Translations under genes and position numbers: made by a program
Shown here: in pieces, positions 36,239-37,324 of the stretch
Layout of the letters: each line of letters begins with the position of its first letter
Numbering within the stretch: the first letter of the stretch is position 1
Notes under the pieces: model-generated
Databases searched by the model: none
The model's input: the letters and a program-made list of their open reading frames with translations, nothing else
Told to the model about the DNA's origin: nothing
Assembly: GCA_964582645.1 (NCBI GenBank)
Contig: CAZOTB010000002.1
Location: forward strand, 12,777-76,776
DNA from: an uncultured Verrucomicrobiota bacterium
GTDB taxonomy: Bacteria > Verrucomicrobiota > Verrucomicrobiia > Palsa-1439 > CAZOTB01
Direction: 5' to 3'
Length of the DNA stretch: 64,000 bases

Positions 36239-37075
36239 ATGACATGTAATCATTCAAGTGGAGGTTTCTTCGGAAGAATGAAGGATAAAGTTGTTGGTGG
36301 ATATGAAGGAATTAAGAATAGATTGTTAGGAGATGGTGTATTTGATTTGGAGTATGTTGGACAAGAAAGATCTGGATTACCAGGTATTAATTATGCTGGT
36401 AATAAAGCATTTACGCTGATTGAATTACTTGTTGTTACTGGAATTATTGCTATTTTAGCTGCGATGACTTTGCCTGCTTTGAGTTCTGCTAAAGCTGCCG
36501 GGAAAAGAGCATCATGCATTAATAATTTGAATCAAATTGGAAAAGCCATGACGATGTATGCTGGAGATAATAAAGATTTTCTACCTCCAACTGGGACTCT
36601 CATGAATGATGTAACTTCAGATTGGCAGCTTAGAACTCCTTTAGGCACAAATTTTAATGCGGGCATGGTTATAGCAAATGCAGGCACAACAATCTCGACT
36701 GGAAATATTGCTAGTTATAAATCGTTTGCTTGTCCCGATGCCAGTTATTTTACACTTAAGAAATTAGATGATGATTGGTCAAATCCAAGCGGAGTACCAG
36801 AAAGTTCTTATTTGTATAGAAGTAAAATGCATGGAAGACTTGAAAAGCTTGGTGATCTAAATGGTCAAGAACCAAATAATCTTATTATGACGGACTTTAA
36901 CAAATATTATGGTAGTCCAAATGAGAATCATCGAGGGAAGTTAGTAAACGTTTTATTTGCTGATGGACATGTTGCAACAGCAAATAATATAAGTAATGAA
37001 TTGGGTATTTATGTTCCGGCTCGTTTATCAAATTATTGGAATATTCTCAAGGTAAAATTTCCTGGAGGAATTTAA
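36239..37075 (+). CDS. prepilin-type N-terminal cleavage/methylation domain protein, DUF1559 (H-X9-DG) family, in a low-GC island
   Basis: [45 protein letters not shown] is the PVC-lineage prepilin/DUF1559 N-terminus. [12 protein letters not shown] looks like the H-X9-DG motif. The gene is about 35% GC against a roughly 62% GC background. An unusual 57-aa leader precedes the FTLIE motif. Confidence 0.8.
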
Positions 37076-37324
37076 CTATTTTATAAACTTTTAAATAGAT
37101 TATTTTCTTCGATTACTTATGAGAAAAGGTTGTTTGTTAATGAGAGGGATGTGTTAGTTGTCGTAGCCGCGTGGGGTGAGAGCAGCTTCTCATGCAGAAA
37201 TGTCGGGCTTGGTGCATACCTCCGATCATTGGTGCCATTCGAGTAATTCGTGGCTACAGTCTGCTCCATGACCTCCCCATCACGATCCTTGTGAATCGGC
37301 TTCAATAGGATTAGAGTATGCCCG

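Follow-up and report, generated by a model that had tools for sequence, protein, structure and literature searches.

In a 64-kb stretch of DNA from an uncultured Verrucomicrobiota bacterium (contig CAZOTB010000002.1; hereafter the window), we analyzed a gene of low guanine-plus-cytosine (GC) content, the open reading frame (ORF) at 36239-37075 on the forward strand. Judged by its sequence, it encodes a type-IV-pilin-like (pseudopilin-like) protein of the DUF1559 family of the Planctomycetes-Verrucomicrobia-Chlamydiae (PVC) bacteria. The account towards which we lean, with slightly better than even confidence in all its parts together, is that this gene is a horizontally derived, hypervariable pilin-like allele with a long leader, that it forms part of a recurring module, and that heads have been exchanged in this module between conserved flanks.

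Composition and family of the low-GC gene

Between positions 36239 and 37150 the GC content is 0.343, compared with 0.607 for the whole window and a mean of 0.611 (standard deviation 0.021, minimum 0.543) for the remaining 912-nt windows, placing the segment some 13 standard deviations lower. The ORF alone has a GC content of 0.352, with values of 0.44/0.41/0.20 at the first, second and third codon positions (GC1/2/3), compared with 0.66/0.44/0.75 in 32 long host ORFs. Its codons are poorly adapted to the host (a value of 0.30 on an index modeled on the codon adaptation index and built from host codon usage, versus 0.70 +/- 0.07 for host genes; z = -6), and amino acids with AT-rich codons (FYMINK) make up 33% of the protein versus 19% in the host. 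The transition is abrupt and falls exactly at the start codon (GC of 0.60 in the 60 nt preceding ATG 36239 and 0.37 in the 60 nt following it), and the 75 nt past the stop codon (37076-37150) are still AT-rich, with 24% GC. The first-pass annotation of this stretch, made from the letters alone, had described both the low GC of 36239-37150 and the AT-rich tract of about 75 nt beyond the stop, and had named codon adaptation as a check; all three came out as it had anticipated.

By composition and codon usage, the gene has the profile expected of a horizontally acquired genomic island. The other hallmarks of such islands (mobility genes, a tRNA target, flanking repeats) were not found, save for a 5-bp TAGCC repeat at both borders that is not conserved in the paralogue described below: the window contains no tRNA or Rfam family, and the gene calls, which cover about 21 kb around the pilin-like gene, include no integrase, transposase or reverse transcriptase. 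The 64-kb window holds neither a second low-GC segment nor a second copy of the gene, whole or partial. Because the ORF and some 55-75 nt past its stop have the composition of a genome of roughly 35% GC, we infer that the gene probably originated in a low-GC gene pool and arrived by horizontal transfer. Two sequence likenesses at the borders were considered and dropped: the TAGCC repeat as a target duplication, as the paralogous junctions differ and the repeat is not kept in the paralogue, and a 13/14 match between the left junction GGAATAGCCATGAC (36230-36243) and the internal in-frame GGAAAAGCCATGAC (G-K-A-M-T, 36539-36552), about one such chance match being expected in the region.

Family assignment was based on profile scores and on alignment to solved structures. 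The protein exceeds the cut-offs of Pfam N_methyl (25.8 bits, cut-off 21.2), DUF1559/SBP_bac_10 (PF07596; 36.5 bits, cut-off 23.3, the match being confined to profile positions 2-46 of 268) and TIGR02532 (25.4 bits, cut-off 16.3), and scores far under the cut-offs of the specific equivalog models GspG, ComGC and PilA. F58 falls on the first residue of mature pilins and pseudopilins of solved structure (PilA 6xxd, GspG 5wda), E62 is the canonical Glu +5, and the sequence shows the class III signal-peptide pattern of a hydrophilic leader, Phe at +1, Glu +5 and a hydrophobic stretch of about 20 residues. Homologues are numerous (7808 at E <= 0.001 among 8000 candidates scored), and the few organism-named ones among the best 120 belong to Lentisphaeria, Victivallaceae and Verrucomicrobia. 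Among full-length homologues P0002 ranks best, with 41% identity, and an unusual variant of the helix is common to the window protein, P0002 and the protein of the paralogous module on contig L169. Residues C93, C165-P166, D242 and H244 of the family are kept, with D242 and H244 in nearly invariant columns. The first-pass label of a DUF1559/H-X9-DG prepilin survives in its family part, with N_methyl and DUF1559 above their gathering scores, and is not strictly matched in its spacing, which reads H-X10-DG (H231-X10-D242-G-H); TIGR04294 (H-X9-DG) gave no match at E <= 0.01 in the NCBIfam scan, and the Joint Genome Institute (JGI) labels a truncated copy an H-X9-DG protein. The AlphaFold2 (AF2) model contains a helix at residues 60-110 (block-mean predicted local distance difference test, pLDDT, of 86-95 over 61-110) and C-terminal strands, at a mean pLDDT of only 61.8, and a Foldseek search of the PDB with this low-confidence model returned no meaningful match.

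The recurring module and its variable heads

The pilin-like gene closes a module of about 2.3 kb (window ~34850-37130), comprising orf103 on the reverse strand, a palindrome resembling repetitive extragenic palindromic (REP) elements, orf216 and the pilin-like gene on the forward strand, and an AT-rich tail. The module recurs elsewhere in this metagenome series. A whole copy stands on the 19.6-kb contig L169, which shares its sample with contig L001 (one of those carrying the window's own low-GC sequence), and lies there between unrelated genes, with LplA on one side and a different antitoxin/PIN pair followed by pyruvate dehydrogenase E1 (PDH-E1) on the other. Homology between the two copies starts at the orf103 stop codon, and window 34851-36477 aligns to L169 1242-2856 at 85% identity, a span that takes in orf103, the palindrome, orf216 and 240 nt at the start of the pilin gene. 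The centre of the pilin gene is unalignable. The tail is again alike, with 37087-37128 being 86% identical to L169 3460-3499 (tail motif AGATWATTTTCTTCGATTA), and the likeness stops at ~37128.

The heads encoded by the two copies have no detectable relation to each other (z of 2.0 relative to shuffled sequence). For the window head, a relative exists in that of P0002 (z of 11.6), whose gene lies on an unrelated contig, L165, and has 30.9% GC and a GC3 of 0.16 between flanks of 43-50% GC. Because 85%-identical backbones carry unrelated heads, one of which has a relative in a low-GC pool, the simplest explanation would be that the head segment was replaced by recombination between conserved flanks. 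On L165 itself, the P0002 gene is bracketed by a 29-nt direct repeat (590-618 and 1440-1468, 86% identical) that contains the ATG of the pilin ORF and that of the next ORF, and a C-terminal remnant of an ISL3 transposase lies just ahead of the second repeat copy.

A third version of the arrangement was found on contig L170, with an orf216 homologue of 66% identity and a pilin-like gene of 38% GC with a short leader of 17 aa; the fall in GC at the ATG is common to all three. The L169 pilin-like gene has 37.7% GC and a GC3 of 0.16. By comparison, an ordinary DUF1559 gene on the same contig has 60% GC and a GC3 of 0.72, and 24 other prepilin-like genes in other retrieved loci (nearly all verrucomicrobial) lie within -0.065 to +0.02 of the GC of their locus. 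Because these other genes have host-like GC, low GC is a trait of this subfamily and not of the DUF1559 family as a whole.

The remaining module parts differ in their constraint. For orf103, the ratio of nonsynonymous to synonymous divergence (dN/dS) between the window and L169 is 0.087 at a dS of 0.66, and orf103 is on this comparative evidence a real, constrained gene; it has no Pfam, PHROG or PADLOC match. orf216 is weakly constrained, with a dN/dS of 0.67. Just two homologues of it were found among 5.8 billion proteins, each directly followed by a low-GC prepilin-like gene, at spacings that vary (a gap of 2 nt in the window, a gap of 14 nt in L169 and an overlap of 11 nt in L170). Sequence searches of Pfam, PDB, PADLOC and PHROGs gave no match for orf216, which in its predicted fold looks like a degenerate ComEC-like fragment of the metallo-beta-lactamase (MBL) type, fold comparison being the sole lead. 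The intergenic palindrome contains a nested 16-nt palindrome and a REP-like core, GGAGTTCA(A/C)GCTTCAGCTTG, and is ~96% identical between the window and L169, where the flanking genes reach ~85%. Copies occur at L169 1784-1880 and L170 ~110-135, and the arm motif is present once more at window 51790-51855, so the palindrome is not module-specific. No significant RNA structure was detected in the tail (37076-37150; z of 0.47).

A VapBC-like pair, consisting of a PIN-domain protein and a weakly CopG/DUF6364-like antitoxin (34045-34485 and 34533-34808, both on the reverse strand), stands directly left of the window module; in L169 an unrelated antitoxin/PIN pair stands on the right side instead. 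The pilin-like gene of L169, also seen on contig L171 and thus in two samples, has an in-frame TGA (L169 3335-3337) at the Gly of the conserved DGH (NVLYMD*HVEWV), after which 39 further codons are open. This TGA may be a recent nonsense allele or, speculatively, the relic of a donor code in which UGA encodes Gly.

The comparison between module copies bears directly on when the gene arrived. Under the simpler scenario first proposed, a foreign pseudopilin gene with its own atypical leader was inserted recently and once at this site. The unameliorated composition (GC3 of 0.20 versus 0.75), the sharp borders, the TAGCC repeat at both of them, and the lack of synteny in relatives over 33.8-38.4 kb would all fit such an event. 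Yet the paralogous module, at another locus and at 15% DNA divergence, shares both the junction (gaggaata[g/a]ccATGACATG...) and the leader, L170 repeats the succession of orf216 and a low-GC gene, and the TAGCC repeat is not conserved in L169, such that we consider a single recent insertion unlikely. Since the junction, leader and arrangement recur in L169 and L170, the gene was probably acquired and in place before the module copies diverged. Between copies, the genes neighboring the pilin gene have dS values of 0.17-0.66, which likewise argues for a residence of some time in the lineage. Of the proposed recent horizontal acquisition, the foreign origin is upheld by the nucleotide, codon and amino-acid evidence, whereas its recency at this site is not, as the low-GC gene predates the 85% module divergence.

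The same persistence could be read in favor of a low GC that is not foreign at all, maintained at the site by selection that favors AT-rich sequence or rare codons, or produced by local AT-biased mutation. Three versions, each with a host-like 5' untranslated junction, place the GC step at the start codon, and low GC has lasted through a module divergence at which neighboring dS reached 0.2-0.7. However, the shift extends beyond synonymous sites to GC1 and amino-acid composition, the AT-rich tract runs on past the stop, where the DNA is non-coding, a related gene that is likewise low in GC sits next to insertion-sequence remnants in an unrelated context of lower GC, and the differences between copies carry no mutational signature on inspection. 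We therefore give this explanation little credence.

The junctions themselves are well supported. The low-GC sequence occurs on contigs from four JGI samples, with both junctions present on three contigs and identical in L001, L002 and the window, and with the right junction also in L004; the exact protein is found on 4 contigs, plus one truncated copy, and NCBI also holds it on a 116-kb contig. The junctions are not an assembly artefact. A 2.9-kb contig, L003 (~window 35046-37957), is L169-like left of ~36100 and window-identical right of it, which leaves two possibilities, a genuine recombinant of module copies and an incorrect join made by the assembler at the repeat they share; its reading as a strain variant with a recombination tract was dropped once the two parts had been recognized as L169-like and window-like. 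Although L003 indicates that the repeat confuses assemblers, the identical junctions across four samples and the 116-kb contig make a chimera or contamination a negligible prospect.

We further considered whether the gene might be a non-functional relic, that is, a foreign gene in decay that lacks expression or processing. The premature TGA in the L169/L171 paralogue, the weak constraint on orf216, the very poor codon adaptation to the host, and the absence of a nearby sigma-70-like promoter (no promoter-like site in 35500-37700) are compatible with this. The same 35500-37700 region contains three terminator-like sites, no more than in shuffled sequence, one inside the ORF and none in the tail. 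Set against a relic are an ORF that is intact over 278 codons of AT-rich DNA, purifying selection between copies on the leader N-terminus and the alpha1 helix, and retention of the family residues listed above, and we rate this possibility as unlikely.

Several points weigh against the account that we favor, namely horizontal origin with head exchange within a recurring module. The donor lineage that the first-pass annotation had hoped to identify by homology search did not emerge: no donor or near-identical low-GC source was found, and the head alone retrieved only itself among 5.8 billion proteins, plasmids, phages and viral contigs. Head replacement rests on three sequences, for which extreme divergence in situ is an alternative, and the window and L169 copies may belong to one genome or to two. 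No empty site was found in metagenome contigs (searched as the left flank, N{0,30} and the right flank). The in-frame TGA and the weakly constrained orf216 may indicate that parts of the system are decaying. Residue -1 is Ala where Gly would be canonical, although the protein's own family has Ala at -1 more often than any other residue (66/119 homologues). Finally, the ~21 kb with gene calls contain no prepilin peptidase or assembly ATPase and only a lone secretin.

This secretin gene (Secretin_N + Secretin, 777 aa; 42149-44482, forward strand) lies 5 kb downstream of the pilin-like gene and is followed by a DUF1501 gene and by that of a 1658-aa giant protein with DUF1800, PA14 and Calx-beta domains; other pilus or type II secretion system (T2SS) assembly genes are absent from the same ~21 kb. 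The host phylum is Verrucomicrobiota, as the neighboring UxuA-like gene finds its best match, at 80% identity, in a Limisphaerales metagenome-assembled genome and nearly all matches are verrucomicrobial. This neighbor was used to retrieve 160 loci from genome and metagenome collections, none of which showed synteny on the island side (surrounding 33.8-38.4 kb).

The long leader and its start codon

Counting from ATG 36239, 57 residues precede the Phe of the motif AFTLIELLVV, the predicted first residue of the mature protein. This count had been made in the first-pass annotation, which took the leader to be long on the grounds that no in-frame ATG, GTG or TTG lies closer to the motif. That argument is false: an ATG at codon 14 (36278) and TTGs at codons 29 (36323) and 37 (36347) would give leaders of 44, 29 and 21 aa. 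The long leader is nonetheless supported as real by its conservation in L169, where it is 52 aa long and has the same start. Over leader codons 1-17 the two copies have 5 synonymous and 0 nonsynonymous differences and encode the same 17 residues (by the Nei-Gojobori count, 8.7 synonymous sites with 5 differences and 42.3 nonsynonymous sites with 0), and 3 of the 5 synonymous differences fall upstream of the internal ATG, in codons 9-11. The mid-leader is divergent (dN/dS of 0.73, with a 5-codon indel), and constraint returns in the alpha1 helix (6 synonymous and 1 nonsynonymous differences; dN/dS of 0.047). GC periodicity of the leader is in phase with the ORF (permutation p of 0.005 for codons 1-49 and 0.0025 for codons 14-49), the remaining two frames contain 3 and 8 stops, and no other start codon occurs between the upstream in-frame stop at 36125-36127 and 36239. 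Because of the conserved codons 1-17, the coding periodicity and the absence of any other start back to the upstream stop, ATG 36239 is, as far as sequence can indicate, the start, giving a leader of 57 aa.

The leader could still be an annotation artefact, with translation starting at ATG 36278, TTG 36323 or TTG 36347 (leaders of 21-44 aa) or with an ancestral start having been lost. Besides the in-frame codons themselves, the family offers some ground for this: annotated leaders in 119 homologues have a median of 16 aa (95th percentile 34, maximum 47), and the closest homologue, P0002, whose annotated 17-aa leader is probably a junction artefact, would have its real start at M10, 8 residues ahead of the motif. 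Shine-Dalgarno motifs are rare in the host and thus provide no guidance. An internal start would, however, leave unexplained the 3 synonymous and 0 nonsynonymous differences of codons 9-11, ahead of the first internal ATG (5:0 over codons 1-17), and the coding periodicity that runs across the leader, and no alternative in-frame start is available between the stop at 36125-36127 and 36239. We hold an artefact of this kind to be improbable.

The AF2 model gives the leader no secondary structure (pLDDT of 43-58), and it is predicted to be disordered. Because the 17-residue leader start is conserved, we propose that it implies a function for the pro-peptide, such as partner recognition or the control of insertion or processing; the first-pass annotation had suggested a perhaps regulatory role. 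A search with the leader alone found no homologous family among 1.84 billion representative proteins; the only three matches, to Tudor, FG-GAP and phage tape-measure repeat proteins, were rejected as unrelated, being short motifs with scores inflated by repetition. In the last of these, leader residues 9-26 (36263-36316) resemble the repeat unit GFFGDMKDKIVGSGKAAYEGIK of P0140, a 1238-aa phage tail tape-measure protein (matched by PHROG 1535 at E 8e-29), with 15/22 identities in what is a short-motif match only. Neither the leader motif nor orf216 had a match in viral contigs.

A bolder interpretation, which we think has only a slim chance of being correct, is that of a self-contained mobile pilin cassette, in which orf103, orf216 and a long-leader pilin scaffold swap low-GC heads and the 52-57-aa leader serves as a functional cytoplasmic pro-domain. 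The scaffold would consist of the leader N-terminus, the alpha1 helix, the 3' tail and the degenerate ComEC-like MBL-fold partner, the heads being drawn from a community-wide pool, and the leader motif GFFGRMKDK...Y.GIK could gate insertion or processing, or act after release.

Table 1. Positions of the pilin-like gene, its parts and the other module elements in the window.
Feature	Position	Strand	Basis
orf103, first gene of the module, 103 aa	34850-35161	-	Called in L001/L002; homologous to L169 1241-1552
Palindrome with 27-nt arms and 43-nt loop, between the divergent orf103 and orf216	35384-35480		Repeat search (I1), 93% complementary
orf216, conserved upstream partner of the pilin gene	35586-36236	+	TAG stop 2 nt before the pilin ATG
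Low-GC ORF, 278 aa, type-IV-pilin-like precursor of the DUF1559 family (predicted)	36239-37075	+	ORF list, Pfam, TIGR02532
Leader, 57 aa (putative)	36239-36409	+	Codon periodicity, L169 homology
Conserved N-terminal 17 leader codons, marking ATG 36239 as the probable start	36239-36289	+	Window versus L169
Predicted mature N-terminus F58 with E62 (+5) and hydrophobic alpha1-N helix	36410-36481	+	Alignment to solved pilins, AF2
Variable, predicted periplasmic part with head domain (C93, C165-P166, C-terminal motif at 36929-36970)	36482-37072	+	Family alignment
AT-rich 3' tail, 24% GC (module-conserved part 37087-37128)	37076-37150	+	GC, L169 alignment

Proposed mechanism and relation to known systems

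From established type IV pilin biology, a course of events for this gene can be outlined. Translation would begin at ATG 36239, the gene sharing an operon with orf216 and perhaps being translationally coupled to it. The alpha1-N helix would enter the inner membrane through SRP (signal recognition particle) and Sec, with the leader staying in the cytoplasm, and prepilin peptidase would cut between A57 and F58 and N-methylate F58. The mature 221-aa protein, with Glu at +5, might then pass to a T2SS-like or type IV pilus (T4P)-like machinery or stay anchored in the membrane. At the level of the gene, the low-GC sequence would have been acquired horizontally before the module copies split, and the head swapped, as in hypervariable pilin allele or cassette exchange.

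The nearest relatives of this protein are DUF1559 proteins with an N-methylation domain (Planctomycetota, Verrucomicrobiota, Lentisphaerota), with which it shares A or G followed by FTLIELLVV, the Glu +5, the region LPAL..AK...R..C.NNLKQIG.A...Y..DN and the C-terminal ...N(V/I)L..DGHV, along with thousands of homologues. It departs from ordinary members, which are host-like in composition, by a GC of 35% in a 61% GC genome, by its 57-aa leader with a conserved N-terminus, where the family median is 16 aa, and by its orphan head, its H-X10-DG spacing and its consistent pairing with orf216. DUF1559 is the largest paralogue group in Planctopirus limnophila, comprising 68 genes of unknown function, two of which are essential (PMC10632474).

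Type IV pilins and T2SS pseudopilins (GspG, PilA, ComGC) have in common with it the hydrophilic leader, Phe +1, Glu +5, a hydrophobic helix of about 21 residues and, in the predicted model, a long alpha1 helix followed by beta strands. Pilin leaders as described have Gly as their last residue and a length of 6-26 aa, or of ~15-30 aa for type IVb (PMC4471445), and that of TcpA has 25 aa (PMC5207764); by contrast, the leader of the window protein has 57 aa (52 in the paralogue) and ends in Ala, and no assembly genes are adjacent.

A different parallel concerns the variation of the gene. The pilA groups of Pseudomonas aeruginosa are hypervariable pilin allele islands with allele-specific accessory genes. 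Like the module, those islands combine a conserved N-terminus with heads that are unrelated from copy to copy, have a GC content lower than the genome average, seem to recombine through conserved flanks and carry an accessory ORF in tight linkage. They differ from it in that here the partner ORF lies upstream and resembles a degenerate fragment of the MBL fold, different loci carry the module as a whole, the protein is a DUF1559 protein and not a demonstrated major pilin, and the GC contrast (~26 points) is far larger. Integron cassettes, too, are single, apparently promoter-less ORFs with sharp borders directly behind another gene; unlike them, the low-GC gene has no attC-like site at either border or in the L169 tail (regular-expression scan for R''...R' core sites), no integron integrase in the ~21 kb with gene calls, and no cassette array. 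Genes characteristic of diversity-generating retroelements, shufflons or silent cassettes (a reverse transcriptase and its template repeat, or a recombinase and its inverted repeats) were likewise not found in those ~21 kb. The recurring three-gene module with its variable long-leader DUF1559 gene is thus a variant of known pilin-like proteins and pilin allele islands, and not a new kind of system.

DUF1559 prepilin-like proteins are among the largest PVC gene families of unknown function. In the present subfamily the leader appears to be about twice as long as the longest described for type IV pilins and to be under purifying selection, which would offer a handle on DUF1559 processing and suggests that pilin leaders can exceed the role of a disposable tag. 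The GC contrast of 26 points, a module that recurs and heads that are unrelated in 85%-identical copies point to horizontal exchange of head domains in an uncultured verrucomicrobium, correcting the simple notion of one recent foreign insertion. Such exchange would parallel that in the pilin allele islands of pathogens and would fit a diversifying pressure, for example from phage or substrate specificity. If the cassette interpretation were true, the module would stand for a novel way in which PVC bacteria mature and diversify their pilins.

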